From an uncultured Acidobacteriota bacterium (lineage in GTDB: Bacteria > Acidobacteriota > UBA6911 > RPQK01 > JAPXNP01), in assembly GCA_963777605.1 (NCBI GenBank), contig CAVZRV010000008.1, positions 224,001 to 288,000 on the forward strand: a stretch of DNA of 64,000 bases. Reading direction: 5' to 3'. This document shows positions 8,852-30,997 of the stretch, piece by piece. The stretch's first letter is position 1; each line of letters starts with the position of its first letter. Made by a program: the position numbers and the translations under genes. A model generated the notes under the pieces. That model saw only the letters and a list, made by a program, of their open reading frames with translations, made no database searches and was not told the origin of the DNA.

Positions 8852-9167
8852 TTATGACTCCGGCGTTCAACATTACGCGGAAGCACCAGTTTTGTTCACA
8901 GTTGGCAAGTGGCGCAAGTCCGCTCTTCGACGCTCGAGCCGGCCCGGAGTCAACCAGGGAAGCGGCCGAAAGCTTATGGATTCCTGAGTCGGCGCATAGT
9001 CTAATGACAACGGGACTGCGAGTTCGTGACGACCCCGGCTCCAGGAGGCTTTGCGGAGAAATGCCGTTCGCCTTACAAGCTGGCGTGAGAATCGTGCGAG
9101 GCCGGCGGTCCGGTGGGCAACGTTCTGTGCGGGAAACTGAAACTGCAGGCAACTGAGGGGACAGGAA

Positions 9168-12268: not shown

Positions 12269-12733
12269 AAAGGAGTCTCCTCAGAACGGAAATTGGGTAT
12301 TCGTCGATCTCAGGCAGATTATCGGCGCTTCCCCGGCAAATAGCAATTCCTGCGTCTATGAACCCAAAAGGATGGGGCAATTGCCCCTAGATTGCCGGTT
12401 TATGCAGGGTTCGGCTGAGGAGAGGACGATCGGAGACGAAACCGGGATTTCTCCTCAGTATGGGATGCTCGCCACCTGAAACGCTTCGATCAGAAGCTCT
12501 TTGAGAACCCGCATGGCTGGCCCGACTGCTGAGATCTGCAACCGTTTGGGGTAACTCGTATCAGAGAAGTGTGGAGATTCTGAACTGGAATGGATGTTGC
12601 GTTTTCCACACGCACGCTTAGTCAGATTAGCGCTTTAGTTATTGACACGTAGTTTTTCCAGGGAACAGTTGATTTTTGTCGTGGGGCTAAACTTGGAGCG
12701 AAAGCCGCTGTTGCCTCAGCGGAGTCTTTGCCA

Positions 12734-14644
12734 ATGAATTCAACCAGCAACCTAATTGAGTCATCCGGTGCATCCTCTGGTCAGATTGAGACCAGACGAG
12801 TCAAAGAGCAGATCATCGAGATCGTCAGCGACTCCGGCGAGGGTGCGCAAACTTGCGGCCAGATGTTCGGGACCATTTGCGCAAAAATGGGGAACGGCGT
12901 CTGGACCGTTGAAATCATACCTGCCGAAATCGAGCCTCCCTATCGGTCGCGGGCCGGAGCGTCGGGGAACCGAATTCGTGTTGGTGCCAAGATGGTGACC
13001 AATGCCGGCGATGAAGCCGACGTGGTCATCGCCTTTAACGAACAGGTGCTTTACAGTCGAATCGACGTCGGTGCGCTTCGCCCCGGGACGATTGTTTTCC
13101 TGGATCAGGTCTGGAAGAACGATCCCTCTGAGGCTGTGCAGCGAGCATACGCCGATGCCTTTAAGGACTTCGAGGAGAAGGGTTACATCGTCATCGAGAT
13201 TCCTCTCCACGAAGAGACCCTCAATTTCACCGACGATCCCCGAAAGGGGAAGAACATGTGGGCGTTGGGGTTGCTCTGCTGCCTGTACAACTGCGACATG
13301 GATATCGCTCGCAGCGAGGTCCGTAAGAAATTCACGCGCAAGGGCGAGCAGGTGATCAACGTCAACCTGGAGATCCTCGAATCAGGCTACCAGTGGGCGC
13401 AGGAATTCATGACAGTTCGTTTCAGCGTCCCTCCTGAAATGCCTTCTACGCCGATGGTGGTCATGAACGGAAACCAGGCTGTCGGGCTGGGTGTCATGGC
13501 GGCCGGGATGGAACTTTGCGCCATGTACCCCATCACGCCGGCCACCTCCGCTTCCCATTACCTCTCGGCAGTGTTCAACACGGTTGGTGGATTCGTCCAT
13601 CAGGCCGAAGACGAAATCGCCGCAATAGGCTTCGCAATCGGCGCATCCTACGCCGGAAAAACCGCAGTGACCATCACCTCGGGCCCAGGCCTCGCACTGA
13701 AGACCGAGTTTTTGGGGCTGGCCGTGATGGCTGAAGTCCCCCTGGTGGTCGTGGTGGTTCAGAGGGGAGGCCCGTCAACCGGGTTGCCGACCAAGATTGA
13801 GCAGGGAGACCTGCTGGCGGTGCTCTTCGCCTCTCCAGGCGACAGCCCGAAAATCGTGATGGCCCCGGCGACGATCGAAGAGTGCTTTCACTTCATTGTC
13901 ACTGCCCGCAAGCTCGCCGAGGACTTTCGCGGTCCGGTCATGGTTCTGACCGACACGAACCTGGCGACCGGTCAGCAACCCTTCGCCCGCCCGAAGGTGA
14001 AGGAAGAGTGGCTTTCAGCGCCGATTGACCAGTCTGCCTGGGACAAGGAGATTGTTCCTTATGCGTGGGACCAGGAAACCGGTCTCTCCAGCCGGCCTCT
14101 TCCTGGACAGCGAGGTGGAGAGTATGTCCTGACGGGTCTGGCTCACGATGAGCGGAGCAAGGTTGCGTACGAGTCTGGGATCAACCAGCGGGCAATGGCG
14201 ATGCGGAGCCGCAAACTGGCGGCTTTGCACAAGAGTCTGAACCCGCCCGAAGTCTATGGCGACCAGGAAGGCGATTTGCTCCTGGTGACCTGGGGGTCAA
14301 CTCTCGGCGCCGCCCGGGAGGCAGTAGAACGGGTTCGAAATGACGGAGGAAATGTCTCGCACGTGCATTTGCGTTTCCTTTCGCCTCTCGAACCGGGTCT
14401 CAGGGAGATCTTCCGGCGGTTCAAACGGGTGCTGACGATTGAGATTAACTACTCCGACGATGTCGATGGAGTTTACATTACCGAGGAGAACAGACGCCGG
14501 TCACAACTGGCAAGGATATTGCGAGACGCGACCCTGGTGGATGTCGATTGCTGGTCGAAAGTACCGGGCAGCCCACTTCCTCCGGGCCGGATCGAGGAAG
14601 AGATTCGAAAGCGGCTGTCTTCGGCGAAGAAGGGACTGGATTGA
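12734..14644 (+). CDS. korA: 2-oxoacid:ferredoxin oxidoreductase alpha subunit
   Basis: N-terminal gamma domain (SDSGEGAQTCG), MNGNQA, intact YPITP, AEDEIAA, TSGPG, QRGGPSTGLPTK; GGAG RBS before ATG 12734. Substrate not determinable. Confidence 0.93.
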   Translation: MNSTSNLIESSGASSGQIETRRVKEQIIEIVSDSGEGAQTCGQMFGTICAKMGNGVWTVEIIPAEIEPPYRSRAGASGNRIRVGAKMVTNAGDEADVVIAFNEQVLYSRIDVGALRPGTIVFLDQVWKNDPSEAVQRAYADAFKDFEEKGYIVIEIPLHEETLNFTDDPRKGKNMWALGLLCCLYNCDMDIARSEVRKKFTRKGEQVINVNLEILESGYQWAQEFMTVRFSVPPEMPSTPMVVMNGNQAVGLGVMAAGMELCAMYPITPATSASHYLSAVFNTVGGFVHQAEDEIAAIGFAIGASYAGKTAVTITSGPGLALKTEFLGLAVMAEVPLVVVVVQRGGPSTGLPTKIEQGDLLAVLFASPGDSPKIVMAPATIEECFHFIVTARKLAEDFRGPVMVLTDTNLATGQQPFARPKVKEEWLSAPIDQSAWDKEIVPYAWDQETGLSSRPLPGQRGGEYVLTGLAHDERSKVAYESGINQRAMAMRSRKLAALHKSLNPPEVYGDQEGDLLLVTWGSTLGAAREAVERVRNDGGNVSHVHLRFLSPLEPGLREIFRRFKRVLTIEINYSDDVDGVYITEENRRRSQLARILRDATLVDVDCWSKVPGSPLPPGRIEEEIRKRLSSAKKGLD

Positions 14645-15600
14645 TGTACGGACTCAAGAAGGATTGGGTTCTTGAAAAACAGCCAAGGGTTTGTGTTCTG
14701 GAAGACTACCAGGGAGCGGAAGCGCGTTGGTGTCCGGGATGTGGAGACCATGCGGTACTGAACGCGGTGCAGCGGGTTGCGCGCGACCAGCAACTGCTTC
14801 CGGAGCGTACCGTGGTCGTTTCCGGGATCGGCTGCTCGAGCCGGTTCCCGCACTACATGAAGACCTACGGCTTTCACGGGTTGCACGGAAGAGCTCTGCC
14901 GGTGGCAACCGGAATCAAGAGCCGGCGGCCCGACCTGGAGATCTTCGTGATCACGGGCGACGGTGACTGTTGCGCTATTGGAACCGCTCACTGGATTCAT
15001 GCGATCCGTTACAACATGAACCTGACGGTCCTGCTCCTGGATAACAACATCTACGGGTTGACTAAAGCCCAGACCTCTCCGACGACTCGTACTTCCGAGC
15101 GGTCCAACACCCACCCGAAAGGATCATTTTTCGTTCCCTTGAACCCGATCTCTGTCGTTCTGGGAATCAGTAACGCGTCCTTCGTCGCTCAGACGGTGGA
15201 CTGGAACCCGCCTCATCTGTACGAGACGATCAAGGCAGCAAGGGAGCACAAGGGAACAGCTTTTGTCCGTGTTCTCCAGCGCTGTCCCCATTACACATCC
15301 CACGTGTTTGCAGAGGCACAGCACGACACCTCTCGCATCCTGTACCTCCAGCACCCCGACGGAATCAACGTTCCGGATCAGGTGGCGAAGACATTCAAGA
15401 ATCAGATGGTGCACGATCCCGCCAATTTGTCCGAAGCGCGCGATATCGCCGAGGAGCCGAACGAGGCGTTCCCGGTCGGCCTGATCTACTTGAATCGCCA
15501 TGCACAGCGATACGACGAGGTGACTTGTCAGGGGCTGGGGATGAGCCCGGTGAAGAAGATCGAAGCGATCGACAAGGCCCTCGATCGATTCATGGTCTAG
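14644..15600 (+). CDS. korB: 2-oxoacid:ferredoxin oxidoreductase beta (TPP-binding) subunit
   Basis: WCPGCG, SGIGC, HGRA, TPP motif GDGD..NN, YGLTKAQ, LQRCP; TGATG overlap with korA. Confidence 0.93.
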   Translation: MYGLKKDWVLEKQPRVCVLEDYQGAEARWCPGCGDHAVLNAVQRVARDQQLLPERTVVVSGIGCSSRFPHYMKTYGFHGLHGRALPVATGIKSRRPDLEIFVITGDGDCCAIGTAHWIHAIRYNMNLTVLLLDNNIYGLTKAQTSPTTRTSERSNTHPKGSFFVPLNPISVVLGISNASFVAQTVDWNPPHLYETIKAAREHKGTAFVRVLQRCPHYTSHVFAEAQHDTSRILYLQHPDGINVPDQVAKTFKNQMVHDPANLSEARDIAEEPNEAFPVGLIYLNRHAQRYDEVTCQGLGMSPVKKIEAIDKALDRFMV

Positions 15601-15627: not shown

Positions 15628-18600
15628 ATGGAAAACATTATGGGCAGGACGTCTGCCCGGGAGGCATCTCAGTTGAGAAGAACGCCCGAAATCGCGTCGG
15701 GAGAAGTGCTTGCTTCCGCTTTGGAGTGCGTTGAAGAACTCGAGCGGGCTATCTGCGGCGAGTCTGGGGTGGGGAGTCCCGCCTATGCGTTGGGACGGTC
15801 ACTTTCCGGACTCAGGTCGGCGGGTATCCGCACTGCGGAATGCCGGTGTCCAAATGGCCCCTCGAAGCCGACTCCCGTAGTCATTCACAGTCCGTCGTTC
15901 GCTGGCGTCGCGGAAGATGCCGGCTTGGTCCTCGTATCCGGATCGCACCAGGCGGCTCTCGAAAACTGCATCGTGGCCAGGAGGGTGGCCCAAACCCTGG
16001 GTATTCGTGTCGAGCACGTCATCGCACCCGGGACGGCTGACACCTTGGGTCTCGCTCGACTTCCAGAAACTGGGCAACTCGACAAACTCCTTGCCGAGTC
16101 CGGCGCCGATCCCTCACCGTCGGGCGATTTGGCCGCGGCGGTTGCTGCCGCGTTTGAAACGGTTCGAAGCATCGTGGGGAGCCGCACCTCGGCAGTCCGG
16201 TGCTCGGGCACGACGGACTCTCCGGTCTGTGTTGTAAGCCTGGGTGCCGGCAGTGCCTACTGCGATGAACTGGCTGAACTCCCGGGTGTTTCGATTCGCG
16301 CGATCACGGTAAACCAGTGTCGGCCGTTTCCGGCTGAAGATCTCAAGACTGCTCTTAAAGGTGCGGAGTCCGTGATTTTTGTCGCGGCGGAGGAGTCTCC
16401 TCTCCACCTCTGGTTTTCCAACGAGTTGAATGAACTGGGCGTTACTCCGGTGAAGACGGTGTTGCTTGAAGATCTTCCCGGTTCGGCTGAGGGCTTGGCT
16501 GGACTGCTTTCGGAGAAGCTTCCGCAGGAGCAACGCAAAGCTTTGGCGGCGGCACCGGCCAAGAGGGAAGTTCCCTCCCTGGCGATTGCAGTGCATCCAT
16601 CGGGATCCCGGGCCCGCAAGATCCTCCTGAGGACCGGCGCGACGTTGTGGACTGCACTGGGTCTCCAACCCGGCGATCTCGCCGTTGACGGGTCACGCGG
16701 CTGGACCGCGCTGCGGGCAGGCAAAGACTCTGCGGGACGTGAACTCGATCTGGTAGTTTTGTTCGAAGACCAATTGGCGGACTCAGCCCCGGACTTCGAA
16801 ATGATCCGCCGCGGTGGCGGGGTCATTCTGGTGGCCGGACAGAACCTGGAAGCTTCTTCCTCCTGGAGGAATCTGCCCAGGTCGATACGCACCCAGATCG
16901 AGCAGGGCAACCTTCGGCTCTGGTGGATCAATGTTTCGCAGGAGAATGGTTCGGAGTGCCGGCTCTTGTCCCGGGCGCTCGTGTCTGCGATGGCCTCCGC
17001 CCAAATGATTTCGGTCACCGGCCAGAGCCCGGTTTTTTCCCTTCACCAACTGGACCCGGGTGTGCTTGATTCCAGCGCCGGTCAAGAAATCGACTTCAGG
17101 ACCGGTGCCGGGCTTCCCGGAATGGAACGGCCGCGTGAGGATGCTGAAGCGGCGACGACGCTCCTCCGCCGACTGGTGGAATTTCACCTTGCCGGCACGA
17201 AGCCGGGAGATTCCGTAGCTGCTCCCCAGGTCAGTCCCATGATTCCGGCGGCAGTTCGTGCCGAGTCTCTCGGCGAATCCCATACCGTGTTTCCGTTCTA
17301 CCTTCCCGCTCCCTCTGCGGAGGACCGGCCGAGATCACTCGCGGAGTTATTCTCGGAGGCGCTGGGCAGTTCGGCAGCCACCACCGTGCTGGGAAGAGTG
17401 TTGCCGGATGTGCTGGCTGGACTGACGTCGGAGATTCCCGATGGCGGTTCTCTTTCGATGGATCGGCTGCGCCAGGCCGTAAAGGGACTTGAGGCCCGGA
17501 TTGATGTGAGCGCTGCCGGGAAGGTACAACTCTCGGGAGAACTGAAAACGGTTGAAGAGAGCTTGCCCGCGAAAGGTTCGGTGGTCGGTGTTGATGGCGA
17601 CACCTGGGCCGGCCTCTACCATTGGAGCCTCACACGGGAGCGCAGCGCGGTGCGCAACCGGCTGCTCTTGCAGGTCGAAAGGCTTCTGAACGATCTGGAA
17701 GCGCTCCTTCTCGCTGACGACAAGCTCAAGCCGGAATCGCGCACCGCACCCGCAATTCAGTCCTCGCTCGGGTTCGAGGGGACCCTGTTCATCAATGCAG
17801 GGCGCCTCTCGGGAATCATTCCCCCTGCGCAAGGGTCCCAGGGGCTTACGCCGGAACGGCGAGAGCGGGTCGCCGGGGTTTGTGCCAGCCTTCGCCGATT
17901 CATTGAAGAGTCCGCCCAGACCCCGGACCTGTACGTTTTTCAATCGGGTTCCCTGGAACACGAACTTGCCGGAGTAGTGACGGTGAGGTCTGAAGATCCA
18001 TTCGATGCCGCCCTGGGCCTGTTCGACGGTCTGGCCGCCAAGGTTATCGAAGCCATGAAGGCGGTTCGCGTGGGGAATCTGGAACTTTCGGGGGAATTCA
18101 ATCCGGAGGTCCACCAGCGGATTCTGGAAGGCTTCACCTGGGAGGCACTGAACGAAGATGAAGTGCTCCTGCTGCCGAGCATTCTGGTCGTGGAAAAGAT
18201 TACCGGACTGCCCCGTCGGACCCTTCCCGGGTTCCATCGACTGCTTCAGTCCGGCATGCCCATTCACGTGGCGGTCCTGATCGACGGGGCCGAGTGGTCG
18301 GATGACGACCTGCTGAAGCAGTTGAGGGGTGTTCTTCCGGATCCTGGCTACCTCGGCCTGGCTCACCGTGAAGCGTTCGTGCTGCAGTCGTCGGTCTGCC
18401 GTCCCGATCACCTGCTTGCCGGCCTCGGCCGCATGATGCGGGCACCCGGTCCGGGAGTCCTGGTGCTCGAATTTGCCAGTGCCCCTTCGGATTCGGCGCG
18501 AGCCTGGTCAGGTTGGCTTGCCGCCTGGCTGTCGCGTACGGTACCTTTTTACAGCTATGACCCGTGGAAGGGCGATTCCTGGGCGGACCGCTTCTCGGTC

Positions 18601-19509
18601 GACGGCAACCTCAATCCCGAGAGCGCCTGGGTAGTCACCGAGTTCGAGTGCCAGGATGCCAATGGGTCTGAACAGTCGGTTGCAGAGTCGATCACCTTCG
18701 CCCACTTTGCGGCCCTCGACAGTCGACTCCGGAGCCAGTTCTACGTTCTTCCCCACGAAATTGAGTCCGACCGGCTAATTCCGGTTGCGGAATATCTCGA
18801 TCGCCTCGACGAACTGCCCGAAGGCGCAGTCCCCTTCATATGGGTACTGGCGGACAAAGGTGAGAAAGTTCGTCGCGCCGTCATCACCCGGGACCTGTTG
18901 GCTGGATGCCGGGATCGCTCCCGTGCGTGGAGAATTCTCCAGGAGCTGGCCGGCCTGCGCAATGTTTACGTGGAGCGGGCGGTCAACACTGCTCTGGAAG
19001 AATCAGCTCGAAGGGCGCAAGTCGAACAGGATGCCGCCGTCAAGGCAGCACGCCGGGAAGGGGCGACGGAAGCGGTCGACAAGTTGGTCTCCGCACTTTC
19101 CAACCCCGATGCGCTTGTACGCGGTGCGGCTGTTGACACAGTTGCCCGACCGGCCGTAGCAATGCCGTCCACCGAATCGACTTCGGCGGCCCCCCAGGCG
19201 GAGGAACAATCTGAGCCCGCGGCTCCGGCGGCTGAACCGGAACCGGAAGAAGAAGAGCTTTCCGCCGAGCCCTATATCGATTCCTTTTTGTGCACGAGCT
19301 GCAACGACTGCATCAACCTCAACTCACGAATGTTCGGCTACAACAGTGACCGTCAGGCGTACATCGTGGATCCGTCGCAGGGCACGTTTTCGGAACTGGT
19401 TCGGGCGGCGGAATCGTGTCCGGCGAGTTGCATTCACCCGGGACTGCCTCGTCCCGGTGACAAAACCGCGACGCCTGAGCTCGTGGAACGAGCCAAAGCT
19501 TTTCAGTAG
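15628..19509 (+). CDS. Degenerate pyruvate:ferredoxin oxidoreductase-fold protein with C-terminal ferredoxin domain (pseudo-PFOR 1)
   Basis: PFOR-like remnants GRSLSGLRS, CRPFP, GLAHREAFVLQSS, PFYSYDP..DRFSVDGN, ITFAHFA, WRILQELAG; no YPITP or GDG; C-terminal CTSCNDC..CPASC. Confidence 0.8.
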   Translation: MENIMGRTSAREASQLRRTPEIASGEVLASALECVEELERAICGESGVGSPAYALGRSLSGLRSAGIRTAECRCPNGPSKPTPVVIHSPSFAGVAEDAGLVLVSGSHQAALENCIVARRVAQTLGIRVEHVIAPGTADTLGLARLPETGQLDKLLAESGADPSPSGDLAAAVAAAFETVRSIVGSRTSAVRCSGTTDSPVCVVSLGAGSAYCDELAELPGVSIRAITVNQCRPFPAEDLKTALKGAESVIFVAAEESPLHLWFSNELNELGVTPVKTVLLEDLPGSAEGLAGLLSEKLPQEQRKALAAAPAKREVPSLAIAVHPSGSRARKILLRTGATLWTALGLQPGDLAVDGSRGWTALRAGKDSAGRELDLVVLFEDQLADSAPDFEMIRRGGGVILVAGQNLEASSSWRNLPRSIRTQIEQGNLRLWWINVSQENGSECRLLSRALVSAMASAQMISVTGQSPVFSLHQLDPGVLDSSAGQEIDFRTGAGLPGMERPREDAEAATTLLRRLVEFHLAGTKPGDSVAAPQVSPMIPAAVRAESLGESHTVFPFYLPAPSAEDRPRSLAELFSEALGSSAATTVLGRVLPDVLAGLTSEIPDGGSLSMDRLRQAVKGLEARIDVSAAGKVQLSGELKTVEESLPAKGSVVGVDGDTWAGLYHWSLTRERSAVRNRLLLQVERLLNDLEALLLADDKLKPESRTAPAIQSSLGFEGTLFINAGRLSGIIPPAQGSQGLTPERRERVAGVCASLRRFIEESAQTPDLYVFQSGSLEHELAGVVTVRSEDPFDAALGLFDGLAAKVIEAMKAVRVGNLELSGEFNPEVHQRILEGFTWEALNEDEVLLLPSILVVEKITGLPRRTLPGFHRLLQSGMPIHVAVLIDGAEWSDDDLLKQLRGVLPDPGYLGLAHREAFVLQSSVCRPDHLLAGLGRMMRAPGPGVLVLEFASAPSDSARAWSGWLAAWLSRTVPFYSYDPWKGDSWADRFSVDGNLNPESAWVVTEFECQDANGSEQSVAESITFAHFAALDSRLRSQFYVLPHEIESDRLIPVAEYLDRLDELPEGAVPFIWVLADKGEKVRRAVITRDLLAGCRDRSRAWRILQELAGLRNVYVERAVNTALEESARRAQVEQDAAVKAARREGATEAVDKLVSALSNPDALVRGAAVDTVARPAVAMPSTESTSAAPQAEEQSEPAAPAAEPEPEEEELSAEPYIDSFLCTSCNDCINLNSRMFGYNSDRQAYIVDPSQGTFSELVRAAESCPASCIHPGLPRPGDKTATPELVERAKAFQ

Positions 19510-19530: not shown

Positions 19531-20382
19531 GTGGAACCAGTGATTACGGCTGCAATCATTATGACCGGTCTGGGTGTGGTCTTCGCTTCCATTCTGGCCA
19601 CCGCAGACCATCTCCTCCGAGTCGAAGAAGATCCGAGGCTCGAACAGGTGGAAGGCATGCTCCCGGGAAACAACTGTGGGGCATGCGGCGAGCCCGGTTG
19701 CCAGGCTTTCGCCGGACGTCTTGTCAGGGGGGAAGTCGCTCCTGGCAAGTGTACGGTCAGCACGGAAGAAGCCCTCGTCCAGATCGCCGGGTTTCTGGGC
19801 GTTGATGTCGGCGGTGAAGAGAAGCGTGTCGCACGGCTCAAATGTGCGGGCGGAGAGGGCCTGGTTGCCGATCTGGCAGCGTACAACGGCATTTCGTCCT
19901 GCAGGGGTGCCGTCGTGGTTGACGGCGGAGGACGTGCCTGTACATGGGGCTGCCTGGGACTGGGCGACTGTGAAACCGCCTGCACATTCGATGCGATTCA
20001 CATGAACTGGGAAGGGCTTCCGCAGGTCGATCCGAATCTTTGCACTGCTTGCGGCGACTGCGTGGGCGCCTGCCCCCTCGACCTTTTCACTGTCGTCCCC
20101 ATGTCTCACAATCCGTTCGTACAGTGCAATTCACCGCTGACCGGCGAAGCCGCCCGGTCGCGCTGCCCGGTCGCCTGTGACGCTTGCGGTCGTTGTGCGG
20201 CCGACGCGCCGGCAGGAGTCATCGAGATCGTAAATGGATTGCCGGTGATTCACTACGACCGCGAGGAGAAGCCGACGCAGAGATCCACCTGGCGATGCCC
20301 GACAGGTGCCATTACGTGGATTGAGGGCGAGCAGTTTTCCGAACCTCTAGTTCAAATCAGTAGGGAGCGAATCCGTGCGTAA
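19531..20382 (+). CDS. rnfB: Rnf complex subunit B
   Basis: N-terminal TM helix, EDPR..LPGNNCGACGEPGC, CLGLGDCETAC, CTACGDCVGACP. Confidence 0.92.
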   Translation: MEPVITAAIIMTGLGVVFASILATADHLLRVEEDPRLEQVEGMLPGNNCGACGEPGCQAFAGRLVRGEVAPGKCTVSTEEALVQIAGFLGVDVGGEEKRVARLKCAGGEGLVADLAAYNGISSCRGAVVVDGGGRACTWGCLGLGDCETACTFDAIHMNWEGLPQVDPNLCTACGDCVGACPLDLFTVVPMSHNPFVQCNSPLTGEAARSRCPVACDACGRCAADAPAGVIEIVNGLPVIHYDREEKPTQRSTWRCPTGAITWIEGEQFSEPLVQISRERIRA

Positions 20383-23300
20383 TCTCATATCCAAACTCCG
20401 GTTCGAGCGTTTAAGAAAGTTGTTGGGTGCCGGTGCAGCCGACCAGGGGAAAAAGACCGCAAAAACGGAACTTCTGGAGGTTCAGGAAGCTGTAGCTCTG
20501 GCCGAGGCCATGATCTGCGACATGATCGCGCATTGCTCCGGAGAAGAGTCTCCGGGATTCCAGGAGACCTCCAACGGATTCTCCTCGACCAATGCTTTTG
20601 GCCGACAGGTAGTGAGCGTCGATCTTCCCGGCGTGGCTGAGGGGATTGCCGCTGGTGCCGGTATGACCATGAGTGGGCTCCGATCTTCGGTCTTTCTTCC
20701 CGGTGACCACCTTTCCGAGGGTTATGCCCAGCTCCAATCGATCGCGAGCCGCTATGTCCCTTTGGTGTTGCACGCTGCCTTTCGTGAGGGTTTTGGCCCC
20801 GGCAGCAATCATGCCGGCTACCACGGGGCCGCGGACCTGGGCCTTTTCCAGGCAATGCCCCAGACGGTCCAGCAAGCCATCGACCTCACCTTTCTGTTCC
20901 ACTGGGTTGCCGAGCGGACGTTGATCCCCGGGCTCCTGGCCTTCGACCGCCGTGTCGCCGAGATGGCCGCGTTCCCGACGATCGATTCCATTCGGGAGTT
21001 CCTCGGTGCGCCCGATGCCTCGCTCGCGGCACCCAATCCGGCGCAACTGTTGTTGTTCGGACCAGAGCGACCGGGTGTCCCCGGTTGGTTCGACGTGGAC
21101 CGGCCGGTTTCCTTCGGCTCTCTCCAGGGGTCCAACGACGCGGCCAGCGCCGCGGTCGGCAGACAGGCCTTCTTTGCCGGGCACCTGCCCGAATTGCTCG
21201 ACGAGGGCATGGAGCGGCTCTCGAAATTGACCGGTCGTCCCCTCACCTTCCTGGAACAGGACGAGGTTGATCGGGCCGATTTCGTGCTCGTCACCCAGGG
21301 CAGCTCTTACGAAACCGCTCGGGCGGCCGCCTCCTACCTGAGACAGAGCAAGGGGCTGTCGGTTGGCGTCCTCGGCTTGACCTGGCTGCGTCCCTTCCCG
21401 TCGGCCCAACTCGCCCAGGCACTGCGTGGGAAGCGGGGCATTGCCGTACTCGAGTGTTCCTCGGTGGTGCTTTCCGACCAGGGGAGCCTGATGCGGGAGG
21501 TTCGCTCGGCGGCGGGCGCCCAAAGTGGCAACGCGACCTGGATTTCGGCCAGCTTTGGGCTTCACGGCCAACCGCTTTCGGCCGGCCAGGTCGTTGATTT
21601 GACCATGGAGCTGAAGGAAAAGAAGCCGCGCTCCAAAGTCTGGCTGGGGATCGTTTCCGGGCCCTCGAAGATCGGCGACTACCCCAAGCGGGAAAGCCTG
21701 GTGAAGTCCGTAGCGAGCGATTATCCCGAACTGACCCAGAACACGATTACCGGCCACGGCGTAGAAAAGCTAAGCGCCCAGGAACTGAAGACGGTTCAGT
21801 GGGTGGGTTCCTCCAGTCTGGAACCATCCGACGTCATCCGGCAACTCGTTGATCGTTGCTCCGACGTGGCGCGCGCCAAGATCAGGGGTTTCGGCTGGTA
21901 TCCGGAACCGGGCATCCTCTCGGTTCGTGTTTCGATGGGGCCCGACGAAATTCCGATTGCCGAGGCGGGAGCAGGCGTAGACGTGCTGCTTCTGGGACGC
22001 CTCGGCCTCGACCTGATCCACAACCCTCTCGCGGATCTCGGAGCAGGCGCCACGATCGTTGTTGAATCCGACCGTGCGGCCCAGGAAGTTTGGCATCTGA
22101 TGCCCGATTTCTGGAGATCAGAGGTGCGGCGCCTGAAATTGAAAATGTACAAGGTGGAGACGGGCTTCGACCAGTTGGCGGCGGCGGCCGGCGCAATCAT
22201 CTCGGGCTCGGTGGATCTCCCGTTCCCCGAGATTGAATGGAAGAACCTGGAAGACCCAGCGGGCGACCCGGATGACGTTCCGAAGCTCGTCCGTCGGGCC
22301 GGGGACGCCGGTTCGAGTTACAGCAACCTGCCCCGGTTCTGGGGTGAGGTCATGCAGCCGAAACGGGGCGGGATTTCCGAGAATTTTCCAGATCCCCTGG
22401 TTACCGCGGACGCTGTTCCACCGTACACTGCGGCACTGGCGCGCCCGCGGGGAACGGCGCTGCCATCTATGCCGGTTCTCGACCCCGAGAAGTGTACCGG
22501 TTGCGGTCACTGCTGGCCGGTCTGCCCCGATTCCGCGATTGGTGCCACCCTGCTGAGCCTGCAGGACTACCTGGATGTGGCGGCGGATCAGACGGGGGTT
22601 GAAGGGAAAGTGGCGGCCGCCCTCAAGCGCGCCCACCGTCCCATTGCGGCCCGCGTCGCAGTGCTGATTCGCGAGCGCAACCTGAAGACGGTCCCTGAGG
22701 AAATCTGGCTGGAGGCCTTCGCATCGGTGATCGGCAAAATTTCGGTGCCGGATGGAGAAATGCCCCAGTACAAAGCCGCCTTCCAGGCGACTGCAGAGAT
22801 GGCCCACCGCCTGTCTCCGGTAGTCACCGAGCCGCTCTATTCCAAGCTGGAGTCGGAAAGCCAAAGGTAGCGGCCAGATTCTCATTTTGGCCTTTAACCC
22901 GGACGCCTGCCAGGGATGCCAGCTCTGCATCATGAGCTGTCCCGAATCGGCCCTGCTGGCGATGGACCGGGCCGGAACGGTGAAGGAGGATGCCCGGGAA
23001 GGATGGAAAGTCTGGGAGAATCTTCCGGATACTCCGGGTAACGTCATCGAGAAGGTGGAGGCCGACCTGGAACTCGGCCAGCTGGCCGCCCGTTTTCTGA
23101 GCCGCCACAGTTCCCAGGTCCAAGCCGTCGGGAGTTTCGGCGAGCCCGGTTCGGGCGAACGGCTGGCCTGCCGGATTGTGAGTGGAATCGTCGAGTCCCA
23201 GCTCCAGAAACGGCTCGCCGACCAGGCGGCCGAAGCATCGAAACTGGCCGGCCAGTTGCGGGACCAGGTGCAGGGACAATTGGCGAAAGGTCTCACCGAG

Positions 23301-24683
23301 GCCGACCCGAAAGCAATCCAGTCGGCACTCGAGAGCCTGCCTCGCCACCGGGTGAGCCTGAGCGACCTGAGCGAACGCCTCTCCTCGTTTGGAAAGGCGG
23401 TCTCTCTCGATCCCGTCAAGACTCTTCGACTCGCGCAGACCGCGCATGACCTCGAAACGGAAGCCTGGCAGTTGACCGAAGGGCCCAACCGGCTGGGCCG
23501 TTCGCGGTTCAGCGTGGTTATCGTCAGCCATCGAATCGCCCGTTGGGCGGGCCGGTTCCCCAACCATCCCTACAACGCGCCCCTGGTCGTTGAACCTTCT
23601 CCGGAAGGCGCAGGTCTCGCGGTGGGGCTGGCCGAGGCGGCTGCACTGAAGCATGTCGACCGGGTCCGTACCTATCGTCGTGCGAACCTCTACCTGGAGA
23701 ATCCTTCGGATCTTCCGGGGCGGCTCGTCGACCTGGAAAACCTGACCTGGAGTGATCTGACCGCTGAAGAGCGGGCTACTTGCCCGCCGCTGCTCGTGTT
23801 TGCCGATGAGAGTGCCTTGAGGCGGCAGGGCCTTGGAGCCCTGGGCAGCCTGCTTTCGAGCAAGATCCCCGTAAAACTCATTCTCCTCGACACCCGTTTC
23901 GTGAATCTGGCAACCCCGGAACCGGCCCTGTTTGGTCTCGGTTTCCCGGGGGCCTTCGTTCTCAGTGGTTCACTTGGAGCGCTGGTACACCTCGAGAACA
24001 ACCTTGAAGAGGCCATCAAATTCTCCGGTCCGGCCGTGATCCACATTCACGTTCCGATTCCGCAGGAACAGGGTTTCGAACCCTCCAAGACGATTGAGAG
24101 AGCGCGGTTGGCCGTGCAGGCCAGGGTTCAGCCGCTGTTCGTCTTCAATCCCGCAGCAGAAGGTGCGTTCGGTCTTCGGGTCTCTGTCGAAGGCAATCCC
24201 GGGATAGATTCTCCCTGGGGCGGTTGCGATCCGATCCAGTGGGCCTTCGAAGAGGAACGGTTCAAACCGTTCTTCGTTCCCCTGTCCGAGGATGTCCCAT
24301 CCACCGACTGGAGGGAATATGTTGGACTGGCGGAAGAAGATCGCCGGGACACGGTACCTTCCTACGAGGATGCTGGCGGCAACACCTGGAAGATCGACCG
24401 TCGGCTGGCGGCGTTCGCCGAACGTCGAAGTTCGATTTGGGAGATCTACCAGGAAATCGGAGGCATCGCCAGTCCTCACCTGGATCGGCTTCGCTCGGAA
24501 GTCGAGCAGGAAGTCACGGACCAGAGCCGGGCGGAGTTCGAGGAAACGAAGGCGGGATACGAAGCGCGCATCAGCCAACTGGAACAGGAATCCGATACCA
24601 GGCTCGCCGGACAATTGCGAGAGCGTCTCCTGGTTCTGGCCGGGTTCGGCTCCAAAACCCATACGGATGACACTAATGAGTAG
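20375..24683 (+). CDS. Degenerate PFOR-fold protein with a 2x[4Fe-4S] domain (pseudo-PFOR 2); one gene interrupted by a single-base frameshift near 22857-22870
   Basis: ORFs 20375-22870 and 22887-24683 join into about 1435 aa if one base is removed from GAAAGCCAAAGGTAG. AGMTMSGLRS, HAGYH, WLRPFP, CTGCGHCWPVCP, CQGCQLCIMSCP, RVQPLFVFNP. Could instead be a pseudogene or a sequencing error. Confidence 0.75.
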
Positions 24684-26013
24684 CGCAGTAACTGCTGAGA
24701 CAGCAACCAAGACTTTCCGTCACGGGGTTCACCCGCCGGAGAGAAAGGACTCGACTGAAGGCCGCCCGATTGAACGGGTTCCCTTCGGGAAGGAGTTCAC
24801 GCTTCCGCTCTCCCAACACATCGGTGCGCCTTCGGTTGCAATCGTGAAGCCGGGTCAGCGCGTGGTCCGGGGGGAGACGATCGCCAATCCGGGCGGATTC
24901 GTCTCCACCTGCCTCCACGCTCCCGTGACCGGAACGGTGACGGCGGTAGAACCCCGCCTGCACCCGAACGGAAAGATGATGCCTGCGATCGTGATCGAGG
25001 CCGATCCCTTTTCCTCTCAGAGAGTCGTTCCTCACAAGGTTCCTGCTCCTGAAGGCCTGAGCAATGGCGACCTGGTCAAGCAGGTCCAGATGTCCGGGCT
25101 GGTCGGACTCGGGGGAGCCGCCTTTCCAAGCCACGTCAAGCTCTCGCTTCCCGAGAAGCGCCGGATCGAGTTTGTGGTGATCAACGGCTGTGAGTGTGAG
25201 CCCTATCTGACCTGTGATCACCGAGTTATGGTGGAGCGCGCGGAGTTGGTCATCCGCGGCACCCAGATCATGATGAACAACCTGGGTGCCAATCGAGCCT
25301 ACATCGGGATCGAGTCAAACAAGCCGGACGCCGCCGAGGCATTGAAAGCCGTTGCCCCGTCAAACATTGAAGTCGTTGTGGTCCAGGTCAAGTATCCCCA
25401 AGGCGCCGAGAAGATGCTGATCGACGCAATTCTCGAGAAAGAGGTCCCGAGCGGGGGCATTCCCCTCGACATCGAAATTTTGACCAATAACGTCGGGACG
25501 ACGGCGGCCCTGGCCGACTGGTTTGACCGCGGCATTCCGCTTCTGGAGCGGGTAGTCACGGTAACCGGACCCGGAATCCCCTACCCGCGAAATCTGCTGG
25601 TCCCGCTCGGCACCCCAGTCTCGGCGATCGTGGACTACTGCGGCGGATTGTCCGCCGAAACCCGTCAGGTGATCATGGGTGGTCCTATGATGGGAATGGC
25701 CCAGAAGACACTGGACGTGCCGGTAATGAAGGGCACATCGGGAATTCTGGCCTTGACCGAAGTATTTCAGGCAGTCGCCCAGGAATATCCCTGCATTCGC
25801 TGTGCCCGCTGTCTCGAGGCCTGTCCCATGTTTCTTAATCCAACACGGTTGGCCCACCTCGCCAAGTTCGAGCGCGTCGATGATTTGAAGGATTATCACG
25901 TTCTCGACTGCTTCGAGTGCGCTTCCTGTTCATTTGTCTGCCCGTCGAATATCCCGCTGGTGCAGTGGATTCGGATGGGTAAGGCGGCGGTTCGAGAGGC
26001 ACAGAAGAAATGA
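24676..26013 (+). CDS. rnfC: Rnf complex subunit C
   Basis: TFRHGVHPP, QHIGAP, GLVGLGGAAFP, NGCECEPYLTCD, KYPQGAE, GGPMMG, CIRCARCLEACP, CFECASCSFVCP. Confidence 0.95.
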   Translation: MSSAVTAETATKTFRHGVHPPERKDSTEGRPIERVPFGKEFTLPLSQHIGAPSVAIVKPGQRVVRGETIANPGGFVSTCLHAPVTGTVTAVEPRLHPNGKMMPAIVIEADPFSSQRVVPHKVPAPEGLSNGDLVKQVQMSGLVGLGGAAFPSHVKLSLPEKRRIEFVVINGCECEPYLTCDHRVMVERAELVIRGTQIMMNNLGANRAYIGIESNKPDAAEALKAVAPSNIEVVVVQVKYPQGAEKMLIDAILEKEVPSGGIPLDIEILTNNVGTTAALADWFDRGIPLLERVVTVTGPGIPYPRNLLVPLGTPVSAIVDYCGGLSAETRQVIMGGPMMGMAQKTLDVPVMKGTSGILALTEVFQAVAQEYPCIRCARCLEACPMFLNPTRLAHLAKFERVDDLKDYHVLDCFECASCSFVCPSNIPLVQWIRMGKAAVREAQKK

Positions 26014-27041
26014 GTATCGCGCGCAAGCACGACCTGACACTTTCCACTTCACCCTTTCTCCACGCCCAGTCCACGACGCCGCGGATCATGGCCGACGTGC
26101 TGTTGGCGACGGTCCCGGTGATCCTGGCTGCGTGCTGGTTTTTCGGACTGGGCATTCTGCTCGTGGTCGCAGCTGCCACAGCCGGGGCGGTCTTTACCGA
26201 GTGGATCTTTACCCGGGGGCAACACCCCAGCCCTCTAGTCGACAACAGCGCGTTGCTCACCGGAGTTCTTTTGGGATTGGTATTGCCGCCGAGCTTTCCA
26301 CTCTGGATGGCCTTTCTCGGCGGAGTGGCCGCAATCGGGCTGGGCAAACTGATCTGGGGTGGACTCGGACAGAATGTTTTCAATCCGGCGCTGGTAGGAA
26401 GGGCCTTCCTCCAGGCGTCGTTTCCGACCGCCATTACCAGCTGGACGGCCCCGTCTCAGGGGCTCTTCTCCGTGCCCGCGAAGATCTTCACGGTTCCGCT
26501 CATGCAATCGACGGCGGACACGGTGTCGGCGGCGACTCCACTGGGTTTGTTCAAATTCTCCAGCGAGTTCACCGATGTCGTGTCGCTTTTTATCGGAAAG
26601 ATCGGCGGCTCAATTGGCGAGACGAGTGCCCTGATTCTGATCCTGTGCGGTCTTTGGCTCGGATTCAAGCGAATTTTCGACTGGCGGCTCCCGGCCAGCA
26701 CCCTTTTGTCCGTCGCCGTATTCAGTGGAATCTTCTGGGCCTGGAACCCGAGCAAATTTCCGAGTCCTCTGTTCATGTTGTTTTCCGGCGGAATTCTGTT
26801 TGCCGCGGTATTTATGGTGACCGATCCAGTCTCGACTCCGACTACCCGTAAGGGCGCCTGGATATTCGGGATTGGTGTCGGATTCCTGGTTGTGATCATC
26901 CGGCTCTTCGGCGGACTCCCGGAAGGTGTCATGTACGCGATTCTCTTGATGAACGCGGTGAACCCTTATATCAATCATTACACTCAGCCTCGCATTTTCG
27001 GCGGGGCCAAGAAGAAGTTGGCCGGAGCCGAAGGGAAATGA
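26010..27041 (+). CDS. rnfD: Rnf complex subunit D
   Basis: GGLGQNVFNPALVGR, flavinylation-site-like DTVSAATPL, GSIGETSA, FMVTDPVSTP. Confidence 0.95.
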   Translation: MSIARKHDLTLSTSPFLHAQSTTPRIMADVLLATVPVILAACWFFGLGILLVVAAATAGAVFTEWIFTRGQHPSPLVDNSALLTGVLLGLVLPPSFPLWMAFLGGVAAIGLGKLIWGGLGQNVFNPALVGRAFLQASFPTAITSWTAPSQGLFSVPAKIFTVPLMQSTADTVSAATPLGLFKFSSEFTDVVSLFIGKIGGSIGETSALILILCGLWLGFKRIFDWRLPASTLLSVAVFSGIFWAWNPSKFPSPLFMLFSGGILFAAVFMVTDPVSTPTTRKGAWIFGIGVGFLVVIIRLFGGLPEGVMYAILLMNAVNPYINHYTQPRIFGGAKKKLAGAEGK

Positions 27042-27098: not shown

Positions 27099-27740
27099 AT
27101 GAGTTCAGCAAAACGACCAGGACCGGCACGGCTGATTCTGACCCTCGGGGGGGCCGGATTCATCTCGGGGTTGCTCCTGGTAACCGTATACCTGGCCACC
27201 AAGCCGATCATCGAGCGAAACCAGGCCGAAGCTCTGGAGGCCGCAATCTATCGAGTTGTCCCGGGATCAACTACGCGAAAGGCATTTGAGCTGAAAGACG
27301 GCAAGCTGGTTGCCGTTGAGTCGAGCGGAAACGCGCTGCCTTCCGGCGAGGTGATCTACGGGGCCTACAATGACCAGGACCAGTTGCTCGGCTATGCCAT
27401 CCCGACCGAAGGAGCCGGTTTCCAGGACACCATCAAGCTTATCTACGGATTTGATCCCCACGACCAGAAGATTGTTGGAATGGAAGTCCTGGACAGTCGG
27501 GAGACTCCGGGACTTGGCGACAAGATCAGCAAGGATCAGCACTTCCTGGACAACTTCAAGGACCTTGCCGTGGAACCAGAGGTGGTCGCGGTGAAATCGG
27601 GGACAAAGACCAAGCAGAATGAAGTCGACTCGATCAGCGGTGCCACGATTTCGTCCAAGGCCGTAGCCAAGATTATCGAACAGGCCAATCTCCGCTACCT
27701 TCCGGCTATTAACGCGGCCCCACAGGAGCAATCGAAATGA
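27099..27740 (+). CDS. rnfG: Rnf complex subunit G
   Basis: N-terminal TM helix, ETPGLG, FMN-binding DSISGATISS. Confidence 0.93.
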   Translation: MSSAKRPGPARLILTLGGAGFISGLLLVTVYLATKPIIERNQAEALEAAIYRVVPGSTTRKAFELKDGKLVAVESSGNALPSGEVIYGAYNDQDQLLGYAIPTEGAGFQDTIKLIYGFDPHDQKIVGMEVLDSRETPGLGDKISKDQHFLDNFKDLAVEPEVVAVKSGTKTKQNEVDSISGATISSKAVAKIIEQANLRYLPAINAAPQEQSK

Positions 27741-28378
27741 GTACGCGAGAGAGGTTATACGACGAGACGGTCAAGGGATTCTGGAAAGAGAACCCGGTTT
27801 TCGTACAGTTGCTGGGCCTGTGTCCTGCCCTGGCCGTCACGAATTCGGCAATAAACGGGCTCGCCATGGGCTCGGCTACAACGTTCGTTCTGGTGGGTTC
27901 CAGTTTCCTGGTTGGATTGCTGAGGAACCAGATCCCCAAACAGGTCCGGATTACCAGCTTTATCGTTATCATCGCGACCTTTGTAACTGTTGCCGACCTG
28001 ACCCTCCAGGCCATGTTGCCCACCGTTCACAAAGAACTGGGTGCGTTCATCGCGCTGATCGTCGTCAACTGCATCATCCTTGGCCGCCAGGAAGCGTTTG
28101 CGTCGCGCAACCCGCTCGGCCTGGCCTTAGGAGATGCCTTCGGAATGTCTCTGGGGTTCACCTTTGCCCTGCTGACCGTGGGCAGCATCCGTGAAATCCT
28201 TGGATCCGGATCCCTGTTCGGTTATGACCTCTTCGCGGGCCACTTCGAGCCCTGGGTCATCATGATCCTGCCCCCGGGCGGATTTCTCACCCTGGGAGTG
28301 CTGCTCATAATCTTTGCGCAGGTCAAGAAGAACCGCGCCCTCAAGGCTGCCATGCGACTCGAGAAGGAGGCCGCATAA
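27737..28378 (+). CDS. rnfE: Rnf complex subunit E
   Basis: ENPVFVQLLGLCPALAVT, LIVVNCIILGR, LPPGGF. Confidence 0.95.
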   Translation: MSTRERLYDETVKGFWKENPVFVQLLGLCPALAVTNSAINGLAMGSATTFVLVGSSFLVGLLRNQIPKQVRITSFIVIIATFVTVADLTLQAMLPTVHKELGAFIALIVVNCIILGRQEAFASRNPLGLALGDAFGMSLGFTFALLTVGSIREILGSGSLFGYDLFAGHFEPWVIMILPPGGFLTLGVLLIIFAQVKKNRALKAAMRLEKEAA

Positions 28379-28956
28379 TGGGAAACTACCTCTGGATTTT
28401 CGTCTCGGCGGCGATTATCAACAACTTCACCCTGGCCTACTTTCTCGGGCTCTGTCCATTTTTCGGAGTCAGCAAGAAGATTGAGACCGCCTTTCGACTC
28501 GGCCTTGCGAACATCTTTGTCATGGTGATCACGTCGGTTTGCGCCTGGGCGCTGAACACGTTCGTGCTCCCCTACGCGCCATATCTCCGGCTGATGACCT
28601 TCATTGTGGTTATCGCGAGTACCGTTCAGTTCGTGGAGATGGTGATCAAGAAGCTGAGCCCCGCACTGTTCAAGGCGCTTGGGATCTACCTTCCCCTGAT
28701 CACGACGAACTGTGCCATCCTGGCGCTGGCGCTGTTTCAGACCAACCGGGGCTACGGGTTCGGCGAAGGCCTCGTGTTCGCGGTCGGTGCCGGCGTTGGC
28801 CTGACCCTCGCTCTGGTTCTCATGGCGGGTGTCCGGGAGGAAGCCGAACTCTCGACTATCCCTGACGTTCTGCAGGGCGCCGGCATGGCTTTTCTGATTG
28901 CCGGGATCCTCTCCATGGCCTTCATGGGCTTTGCCGGGCTTTTCAGCGGAGCTTAG
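28378..28956 (+). CDS. rnfA: Rnf complex subunit A
   Basis: NNFTLAYFLGLCPFFGVS, LGIYLPLITTNCAIL, AFMGFAG. Confidence 0.95.
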   Translation: MGNYLWIFVSAAIINNFTLAYFLGLCPFFGVSKKIETAFRLGLANIFVMVITSVCAWALNTFVLPYAPYLRLMTFIVVIASTVQFVEMVIKKLSPALFKALGIYLPLITTNCAILALALFQTNRGYGFGEGLVFAVGAGVGLTLALVLMAGVREEAELSTIPDVLQGAGMAFLIAGILSMAFMGFAGLFSGA

Positions 28957-29167: not shown

Positions 29168-29209
29168 TTTCCACGGCCGCCTGACTCGGCGCCCGTGCGG
29201 GAGATGACA

Positions 29210-29605
29210 CTAGCCGTTGACCAGATATTCGTCGATGAGGGCCTTGGCTTCGGCGATCTGGTCGGTTCCTATTGCCACGAAGGCGAAGTCGTGCTCCCGA
29301 CGGATGAATCGGACACTCCTCAGGTCGATGTTGGCCTCTTTGAGGCGCATCGCAACTTTAGCCAGTGCGCCCGGCTCATCTTTGAGCCGAACCAGCAGTG
29401 CGTCCTCGGTGATTGCCTGAAATCCGGCGTCGCGGAGACTTTCGAGTGCGTCGTTGTAGCGATCGACGGTCAGTTCTACGATGGCGGTGTCTTGAACTTC
29501 CTCAGCGTCGATCGTCTCAATGTTGATCCCCCGCGCAGCCAGCACAGCAGAGATATCCGCCAACAGCCCGGCACGGTTCGCGGTGACCACCGCTATCGAT
29601 CTCAT
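29210..29605 (-). CDS. Tandem ACT-domain protein
   Basis: NRAGLLADISAVLAARGINI and DEPGALAKVAMRLKEANIDL. Confidence 0.88.
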   Translation of the reverse strand: MRSIAVVTANRAGLLADISAVLAARGINIETIDAEEVQDTAIVELTVDRYNDALESLRDAGFQAITEDALLVRLKDEPGALAKVAMRLKEANIDLRSVRFIRREHDFAFVAIGTDQIAEAKALIDEYLVNG

Positions 29606-29629
29606 TTCGTTCTCCTGTCTGCTTCTTTC

Positions 29630-30805: not shown

Positions 30806-30997
30806 CCTCGGCTCCTTCCGAATTCACTGGTTCGATCCCAGCATAGCCGATTTCAAATCGGCCGCCTAGTGACAGGACGCCGGCCTGCCTGCGTGCCTGT
30901 TGATTAAATCCGGCTGCTGTCGGAGGATGATCGAAATGGAATGGTTCTGCGCTGAGCAAAGGGATCTCACTGACGGGACAAACGGGCGCTGTCACTC

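Follow-up and report, generated by a model that had tools for sequence, protein, structure and literature searches.

The DNA analysed here, referred to as the window, is a 64,000-nucleotide stretch of contig CAVZRV010000008.1 from an uncultured Acidobacteriota bacterium, and the gene under study is PP2 (20375..24683, +), which lies in two frames between rnfB and rnfC and encodes a homologue of pyruvate-ferredoxin oxidoreductase (PFOR) of ~1436 residues. PP2 is a PFOR by descent and fold, with collinear domains I, II, III, (IV), V, and VI, and it is a pseudoenzyme, as its fold is kept, its catalytic ligands are lost, and its gene is under selection. Because PP2 can bind neither thiamine diphosphate (TPP) nor the proximal cluster, it cannot oxidise a 2-oxoacid; since the catalytic losses are ancient, complete, and fixed, while full length is kept across phyla, PP2 is best described as a pseudoenzyme with a conserved non-catalytic role. 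The sequence comparisons lean, by somewhat more than an even balance, towards a mainly structural role for PP2, retained as a stoichiometric subunit in an assembly with KorAB (a two-subunit 2-oxoacid:ferredoxin oxidoreductase), PP1 (a second dead PFOR paralogue), and the Rnf complex.

Catalytic-site losses in PP2 and its relatives

The N-terminal part of PP2 (20375..22870, 831 aa, ending at a premature TAG) contains a dead domain I, domains II, III, and IV, and the first half of the ferredoxin domain V, and the C-terminal part (22860..24683, frame 0) contains the second half of domain V, a dead domain VI with a helical insert of ~100 residues, and a helical C-terminal extension (all window features are on the + strand unless marked otherwise). 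E. coli YdbK was used as the canonical PFOR reference for the alignment, with ferredoxin Cys 689/692/695/699 and 745/748/751/755, proximal Cys 819/822/847/1071, GDG at 962-964, and YPITP at 24-28. An earlier note on this DNA had described a likeness of domain I to large PFORs, and the segments that it named, NAFGR (20591-20605), AGMTMSGLRS (20657-20686), HAGYHGAADLGLFQ (20810-20851), and AERTLIPGL (20909-20935), are all found in the translation. The note was also right that YPITP is replaced: the domain I loop now reads AHCSGEESPGF (20528..20560), with SGEES at the YdbK-aligned positions. The same holds for its two other altered motifs. FGEPGSGE (23136..23159) is the former CxGC loop of the proximal cluster, in which Cys has given way to Glu and Ser; the third proximal site (YdbK TGCSS) lies in SHRIARWAG (23526..23552) and is now Arg, and the fourth lies in HVPIPQEQG (24048..24074) and is now Ile, so that the four proximal sites read E-S-R-I. 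FADESAL (23799..23819) replaces the Mg-TPP motif GGDGWAYDIG, with DES at GDG, and the downstream NTGGQ stretch is deleted. Both CxxCxxCxxxCP motifs, CTGCGHCWPVCP (22493..22528) and CQGCQLCIMSCP (22908..22943), are perfect, as the note had claimed, and all eight domain-V Cys coincide with the YdbK ferredoxin sites (CCCC/CCCC). A conserved C-terminal tail, LRERLLVLAGFGS (24615..24653), corresponds to invariant columns in alignment A1 and occurs in other phyla as well.

Family models reflect the same pattern. TIGR02176, which has a cut-off of 911.35 bits, gave 64.9 bits for an intact orthologue and 45.3 bits for the window copy (genome search). The Pfam scan of PP2 returned PFOR_II, a weak POR_N, and Fer4 families, with no TPP_enzyme_C and no POR domain. 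Domain III (PF01558) was unmatched in PP2 and reached 1e-27 in the intact long PFORs described below; a folded segment is modelled at this place. TIGR02179 matched domain V of PP2 weakly, and the comparison with Rnf subunits gave just a weak match of ferredoxin motifs to the rnfB model TIGR01944 (29 bits, cut-off 68.7).

The fold assignment rests on profile and model comparisons. A profile of nine orthologues compared with the PDB matched the M. thermoacetica PFOR 6cin (E 5e-32) and 1b0p (2.6e-24), and the match to 6cin takes in domain VI (profile 1149-1303 to chain 974-1146). For an AlphaFold2 model of residues 1-1200 of an intact orthologue with 69% identity (pLDDT 80.1, pTM 0.76), PFORs were the top Foldseek matches (E about 1e-36 over about 1275 columns). 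Domains I-II of this model superposed on the oxalate oxidoreductase alpha subunit 5c4i_A with a Z of 41.7 and a root mean square deviation (rmsd) of 2.1 A over 363 residues, and the comparison with 6cin_A gave a Z of 41.4 with 787 residues aligned in order (model 30-1200 to chain 2-1051). The window's own 598-aa C-terminal part was modelled by AlphaFold2 with a pLDDT of 88.9 and matched 6cin_A 735-1170 with a Z of 33.0 and an rmsd of 4.1 A over 356 residues.

A close PP2 was present in 12 of the 15 same-family genomes, which are Acidobacteriota: seven copies are intact in a single frame of 1416-1437 aa (46-69% identity to the window N-terminal part), three are cut by contig ends, one is broken (genome G012), and one is truncated (G004). 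The f12 orthologues, from two genomes of another family (L022 = G026 and L023 = G035), lack the domain III segment (about 190 alignment columns); an N-terminal stretch is also missing from both, and the protein of G035 has long low-complexity inserts. Remoter members belong to Myxococcota, Woeseiaceae and other Gammaproteobacteria, and 'Deltaproteobacteria'. In a FastTree phylogeny of 141 rows, from which the garbled or short sequences P0057, P0031, P0070, and P0106 were excluded and duplicates of locus open reading frames (ORFs) were dropped, 107 dead rows formed one clade (SH-like 100, stem 0.49). Its sister group consists of 30 intact rows, which are PFORs of 1500-1710 aa located mostly between rnfB and rnfC. 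In Hydrogenedentota and others, the rnfB-rnfC slot is filled by a PFOR of this length (hereafter, Rnf-linked long PFOR) with all catalytic motifs, 12 Cys, and a terminal tethered single-cluster ferredoxin.

A second census set consisted of 134 further 50%-identity representatives, found with the window C-terminal part, a search that returned 454 representatives at E<=1e-30. GDG, YPITP, and the proximal CxxC pair were each observed in 0 of the 107 dead-clade rows and 0 of the 134 further representatives. Cys at the third or fourth proximal site was likewise found in 0/107 rows and in 5/134 representatives, in each case as a lone Cys at the fourth site. Every clade member thus carries the catalytic losses that the earlier note had described in a single sequence, and the replacement residues are conserved, with 'ES' at the first two proximal sites in 93 of the 107 rows and 113 of the 134 further representatives and a nearly invariant GSG in the replaced proximal loop. 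As the pattern recurs in the 107 tree rows and the 134 further representatives, it is not due to chance. Operon linkage was also compared: among 22 genome loci of the dead clade, rnfB was directly upstream of PP2 in 19/19 with the flank, rnfC directly downstream in 19/19, PP1 upstream of rnfB in 18/18, and korAB upstream of PP1 in 12/14, both exceptions being of the g8 type described below.

Conserved replacement residues would also be expected if the dead sites had been rebuilt for a new ligand or for a regulatory or sensing role, for example through binding at the EPGSGER loop or use of the clusters as a redox sensor, and the conserved helical insert in domain VI and the C-terminal tail, both absent from canonical PFOR, could be counted towards such a role. 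However, PP2 matched no Pfam or NCBIfam family beyond the PFOR and ferredoxin families, and residues that fill the former cluster cavity would be conserved equally. We therefore regard a new function of this kind as very improbable and retain the mainly structural reading.

Several observations on individual relatives accompany the tree. L071 is dead yet falls on the intact side, and L069, L071, and L074 are on long branches with uncertain placement. L069 (625-5571) and L074 (3066-8105) encode PFOR-like proteins of 1649 and 1680 aa, respectively, between rnfB and rnfC, with degenerate TPP motifs (GDT and GDQ), no YPITP, and all 12 Cys; the tethered-ferredoxin Cys pattern is kept in L069, and korA(B) lies 3' of rnfA in these loci. 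These two could represent intermediates or have arrived at the same state independently. Four metagenome loci (L108, L111, L114, and L127) follow a different layout, in the order a PFOR-like protein of 1707-1728 aa, rnfB, a second PFOR-like protein of 1576-1620 aa, and rnfC. The dead clade has a common basic N-terminal motif (e.g., RNLISKLRFERLRKLL, GWLRRLWRR, and LRLFQRLF), which corresponds to 20375-20430 in the window (PP2 residues 1-18), is absent from the five intact long PFORs examined, and was modelled as a low-confidence helix (residues 2-17). With respect to a possible membrane or docking helix, the N-terminal hydrophobic moment had a median of 0.56 over 75 rows, compared with 0.46 in an internal control, and was 0.41 in the window.

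Facultative domain-V clusters and the tethered ferredoxin of PP1

All eight domain-V Cys are present in 99 of the 107 clade rows and in 112 of the 124 further representatives that cover both motifs; the other 12 representatives lack three or more of them. As the earlier note had anticipated for orthologues, these losses are not random. The g8-type lineage, comprising 7 rows in one subclade (SH-like 100), reads x-S-S-C / C-C-C-S, with the first three Cys of motif 1 and the fourth of motif 2 missing, and this state is found in six separate 90%-identity clusters. In the standard two-cluster ferredoxin scheme, these four positions ligate one cluster, so that the lineage lacks exactly the four ligands of a single cluster, which would be the PFOR distal cluster (a search for the D. 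africanus Cys numbering yielded nothing relevant).

A second altered state, C-x-L-C / C-P-x-x, which lacks Cys II and III in each motif, was found in clade row P0092 and in most of the 12 exceptions, and this no-cluster lineage spans at least 8 representative clusters. A metagenome scan with P0092 alone returned no relative. The scan with alignment A5 (eight no-cluster proteins) returned 35 loci, 20 of which had long matches and were examined, and six contained a no-cluster PP2 (L094, L095, L096, L098, L099, and L100). Here, rnfC follows PP2 in 6/6 loci, rnfB precedes it in 5/5 with the flank, and korA-korB-PP1 precedes in 4/4 with the flank; the no-cluster PP2 is full-length and lies within a complete ten-gene operon. 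Hence, the domain-V clusters are usually kept but dispensable, and since two-, one-, and no-cluster lineages all keep PP2 in the same operon, the role of PP2 cannot depend on the clusters. Where present, the clusters are probably functional, given that they are kept in ~9/10 lineages and lost as whole sets.

The redox element that stays constant is in PP1 (15628..19509, 1293 aa), which ends in a tethered single-cluster ferredoxin. PP1 residues 789-1293 align with 1160-1660 of intact long PFORs, that is, with domain VI and the C-terminal extension, and a Fer4_13 match lies at 1217-1270. PP1 has no domain-V Cys, proximal Cys, or GDG. The Cys of its tail ferredoxin were kept in 15/15 orthologue rows from genome loci and, among the no-cluster loci, were intact (CxxCxxC...CPxxC) in 7/7 rows checked. 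Retention is thus complementary, with the tethered ferredoxin in PP1 alone and the domain-V Cys in PP2 alone, and the constant redox element of the system is the PP1 ferredoxin.

These counts bear on whether the essential job of PP2 could be electron transfer by way of its domain-V clusters, with electrons reaching RnfB from, for instance, the KorB cluster or the PP1 ferredoxin and the dead body as a mere holder. Such a wire would explain why the eight Cys are so widely kept while all other cofactor ligands were lost and why Cys losses come as whole-cluster sets, and L069 and L074, in which the TPP motifs are dead yet 12 Cys remain and korAB follows rnfA, with a tethered ferredoxin pattern in L069, would fit it too. 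However, Cys II and III of both motifs are replaced in at least 8 representative clusters in which PP2 is full-length in a complete operon, and the g8 lineage holds just one cluster. As the no-cluster lineage keeps PP2 in a full operon, the wire cannot be the indispensable role, and we consider an obligate wire unlikely.

From the selective retention of the two ferredoxin-type clusters, the earlier note had drawn a likely relay role for PP2 between rnfB and rnfC. The retention is supported by the census, whereas the position of the relay is not, as gene order was mistaken for the electron path and PP2 without clusters persists in a complete operon. The place of PP2 in the gene order, flanked by rnfB and rnfC with stop and start codons that overlap on either side, and the two intact ferredoxin motifs would agree with PP2 passing electrons between RnfB and RnfC. 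Within Rnf, ferredoxin is handled at the RnfB end and NADH at the RnfC end, and these two subunits are the cytoplasmic ends of a path through the membrane subunits. On this scheme, a soluble RnfB-RnfC bridge would short-circuit the pump because the ion-translocating membrane subunits would be bypassed, uncoupling ion pumping. In addition, catalytically competent intact PFORs fill the same slot in other phyla, and therefore the slot is that of an electron donor to RnfB rather than of a bridge. Together with the existence of no-cluster PP2 lineages, this makes the literal relay the least plausible of the explanations considered, and a mainly structural PP2 with accessory clusters is preferred.

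A single-base frameshift in the window copy

The window PP2 is split across frames into 20375-22870 (831 aa) and 22887-24683 (598 aa). A stop at 22868-22870 closes frame 2, and homology resumes in frame 0, which is open from 22839 and reads KGSGQILILAFNPDAC, where orthologues have ..E(S/A)KGSGRLLLLAFNPDAC in a single frame. The frameshift site is an AAA run at 22857..22859 with one A more than the in-frame orthologues, as the DNA comparison indicates one extra A in the window (GAAAGCCAAAGG) relative to G002 (GAAGCCAAGGG). The 598 codons 3' of the break contain no further stop. Identity between the window and G006 was 64.8% in the N-part and 60.2% in the C-part (C/N ratio 0.93), and the corresponding values for G002 and G006 were 66.9 and 61.2% (C/N ratio 0.91), indicating that the downstream part of the window PP2 has diverged from orthologues no more than the upstream part. 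Because the downstream frame is stop-free and shows no extra divergence, the frameshift appears to be either a very recent lesion or an assembly error. A programmed +1 frameshift was rejected, as 7 complete same-family and 2 other-family orthologues read through in one frame.

If the frameshift is genuine, the window copy is a recent pseudogene that yields no full-length PP2, with the operon either decaying or working without it. In keeping with this, the single-base insertion is followed by a stop 3 codons later, and the public gene calls on the contig give two proteins of 831 aa (P0023) and 583 aa (P0108). Furthermore, no split gene was apparent among the 31 other window ORFs in the Pfam scan, so the assembly is not obviously error-ridden, and related genomes are damaged too (a 643-aa frame without rnfC in G004; PP1, rnfB, and PP2 in pieces in G012). 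On the other hand, the extra A lies in a homopolymer, where assembly errors are common, the downstream part bears no mark of decay in either stops or divergence, and the neighbouring operon genes are all intact. Contigs from 4 public read runs gave fragments only, none spanning 22857-22862 with 31 letters on either side, and the DNA runs that contain window sequence do so in small shares (at most 0.09 of words), with no RNA run among them. Taken together, a real pseudogene is rather doubtful, if less so than an obligate wire, and we continue with PP2 as a retained subunit.

Two damaged relatives were seen at the locus level. In L020 (G004:C1:4866000-4882000), from a genome assembled as a single contig, korA, korB, PP1, and rnfB are followed by a 643-aa PP2 frame (8168-10096, -) and unrelated genes, with no rnfC, and the operon is possibly decayed or rearranged. 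In L021/L038 (G012:C13, a g8 genome), PP1, rnfB, and PP2 are each in two pieces, and either the assembly is noisy or the entire operon is decaying.

Operon context and a candidate KorAB-PP1-PP2-Rnf assembly

The operon order, korA-korB-PP1-rnfB-PP2-rnfCDGEA, is conserved in Acidobacteriota. The first gene (12728..14644, start codon uncertain) encodes a korA-like 2-oxoacid:ferredoxin oxidoreductase alpha subunit with fused domains III-I-II; it matches Pfam POR_N, POR, and PFOR_II and scores 531 bits with TIGR03710, above the cut-off of 482.75, and its best solved relative is 6n2n_A, the 2-oxoglutarate oxidoreductase (OGOR) of M. marinus (E 1.4e-86). The korB-like beta subunit (14644..15600), whose ATG (of MYGLKKDW) is at 14644, has a TPP-binding domain VI (TPP_enzyme_C 1e-26) and a single cluster, and it scores 239 bits with TIGR02177, below the cut-off of 261.9. 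All six canonical Rnf subunits are encoded in the window in the order B...CDGEA: rnfB (19531..20382, 283 aa), assigned from Pfam FeS and Fer4 families, NCBIfam RnfB models, and its translation; rnfC (24676..26013), rnfD (26010..27041), and rnfG (27099..27740), assigned by Pfam; and rnfE (27737..28378) and rnfA (28378..28956), assigned by Pfam and by best BLAST match across loci. The GTG start of PP2 is overlapped by the rnfB stop, and the rnfC ATG shares the final 8 bases of PP2.

The RnfB tails differ in alignment A3, being basic (..KG..A+K-I.RKS.LP.G) beside intact long PFORs and ending in ..F.EPL.QISRERIRA in the dead-PFOR operons of Acidobacteriota. A 570-aa ORF 3' of rnfA (29195-30907, +) was dropped as a member of the system, as it had no Pfam match and no counterpart among 59 related loci; the gene after rnfA, if any, may be on the opposite strand (29630-30805, -). 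Elsewhere in the window genome (G000), contig C7 carries at 980067-985193 (L026:5067-10193, +) an intact long PFOR of 1709 aa that is not beside rnf genes; it has YPITP, GDG, and 12 Cys and ends in a tethered ferredoxin of the Fer4_13 family. A profile search of the window genome gave no canonical NifJ scoring above the TIGR02176 cut-off.

A candidate mechanism begins with an ancestral, obligately dimeric, Rnf-linked, ferredoxin-tethered PFOR, which may have duplicated and lost catalysis to give PP1 and PP2. KorAB, a two-subunit enzyme without its own ferredoxin domain, would do the chemistry, probably the conversion of 2-oxoglutarate to or from succinyl-CoA and CO2. The PP1/PP2 heterodimer would then form a platform that holds the recruited KorAB near Rnf, and the tethered ferredoxin of PP1 would shuttle electrons to or from RnfB. 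The two [4Fe-4S] clusters of PP2, in this and about 90% of lineages, are probably an accessory relay that would extend or buffer the path. The direction could be either way, namely, 2-oxoglutarate oxidation with energy conservation or gradient-driven reductive carboxylation. Passages of PMC5020499 describe two-subunit 2-oxoacid:ferredoxin oxidoreductases (OFORs) without domain V as having a pocket for external ferredoxin and domains I, II, and VI as the dimer interface in all OFORs.

Several points weigh against a mainly structural PP2 in such an assembly. Contact of PP2 with KorAB, PP1, or Rnf is a prediction from gene order and homology, and the proposed KorAB substrate is drawn solely from its nearest solved relative. 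In the three g8 genomes, korA is not linked to the operon, and in G007 korAB is about 0.9 Mb from PP2. The full-length superposition of the orthologue model on PFOR has a global rmsd of about 24 A; the relative domain placement of PFOR is therefore not reproduced, and the domain arrangement of PP2 may differ from that of PFOR, or the model may be wrong. That about 90% of lineages strictly keep the eight Cys implies that the clusters matter where present, and 'mainly structural' may understate the role of the clusters here, and with a frameshifted gene, PP2 might not be made at all in this organism.

In its fullest form, the assembly would be one membrane-bound machine made of KorAB, the PP1/PP2 heterodimer, and Rnf, acting as a hard-wired 2-oxoglutarate:NAD+ oxidoreductase coupled to ion translocation, with the dead PFOR dimer as chassis, the PP1 ferredoxin as swinging arm, and the PP2 clusters as optional relay or electron store. 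We put this forward tentatively, as a possibility to which we would give less than an even prospect.

Among known systems, the homodimeric PFORs (M. thermoacetica 6CIN, D. africanus 1B0P, and E. coli YdbK; TIGR02176) share with PP2 the collinear domains I-VI and both domain-V CxxCxxCxxxCP motifs. Unlike them, PP2 has no YPITP, GDG...NTGGQ, or four proximal Cys, and its domain III is unrecognised by Pfam; it adds the helical insert of ~100 residues in domain VI and the helical C-terminal extension, and it is always encoded between rnfB and rnfC. The Rnf-linked long PFORs (1500-1710 aa, rnfB-PFOR-rnfCDGEA), for which no published description was found in literature searches, are the sister clade and share the slot and the helical C-terminal extension, but they keep the catalytic motifs, 12 Cys, and the tethered ferredoxin, whereas in PP2 both the catalytic sites and the tethered ferredoxin are missing and PP1 keeps the ferredoxin. 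The window korAB is of the same type as the two-subunit (alpha-beta)2 OFOR/OGOR (M. marinus 6N2N and S. tokodaii 5B46), with no domain V; those enzymes use free ferredoxin, whereas the present operon also encodes a tethered ferredoxin in PP1 and an orphan domain V in PP2. The PorD/delta subunit of four-subunit OFORs is likewise a two-cluster ferredoxin module in trans to the catalytic core, a likeness that goes with the weak TIGR02179 match of PP2 domain V, but the PP2 module sits in a dead PFOR body of 1400 residues, and its clusters are lost in some lineages. The six subunits of RnfABCDGE (e.g., C. tetanomorphum 7ZC6) are common to this operon, which adds two large pseudo-PFOR genes and korAB; further Rnf structures are those from A. 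woodii and A. vinelandii.

Literature searches that included passages of PMC12174285 (an RNF/NQR review), PMC13768988 (a 2026 review of PFOR diversity), and two Gallionellaceae papers, without supplements, turned up neither a dead PFOR within an rnf operon nor an operon that joins korAB to rnf, and passages of PMC12174285 describe Rnf with six subunits and free ferredoxin. The present analysis adds the clade-wide Cys census, the one- and no-cluster lineages and the operons around them, the invariable presence of the PP1 ferredoxin in the rows checked, and the frameshift. Relatives of PP2 carry the public names 'pyruvate-ferredoxin/flavodoxin oxidoreductase' or '4Fe-4S binding protein', and the former overstates pyruvate metabolism in the carrier genomes.

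Rnf is usually viewed as a six-subunit pump fed by free ferredoxin. In the present operon, which is widespread (Acidobacteriota, Myxococcota, Woeseiaceae, and other Gammaproteobacteria), the rnf genes are joined by those for a working 2-oxoacid oxidoreductase and for two giant PFORs that are dead. The operon implies a dedicated, possibly channelled link between a tricarboxylic acid cycle step and the pump in carriers that are mostly not classical anaerobes. PP2 would be a clear natural case of an enzyme turned scaffold, and the natural two-, one-, and no-cluster variants provide built-in controls on whether the clusters carry current. If the single-machine proposal is true, the complex, when run in reverse, would be an NADH- and gradient-driven 2-oxoglutarate synthase, and a respiratory supercomplex would have been made by reusing a catalytically extinct enzyme as its scaffold.

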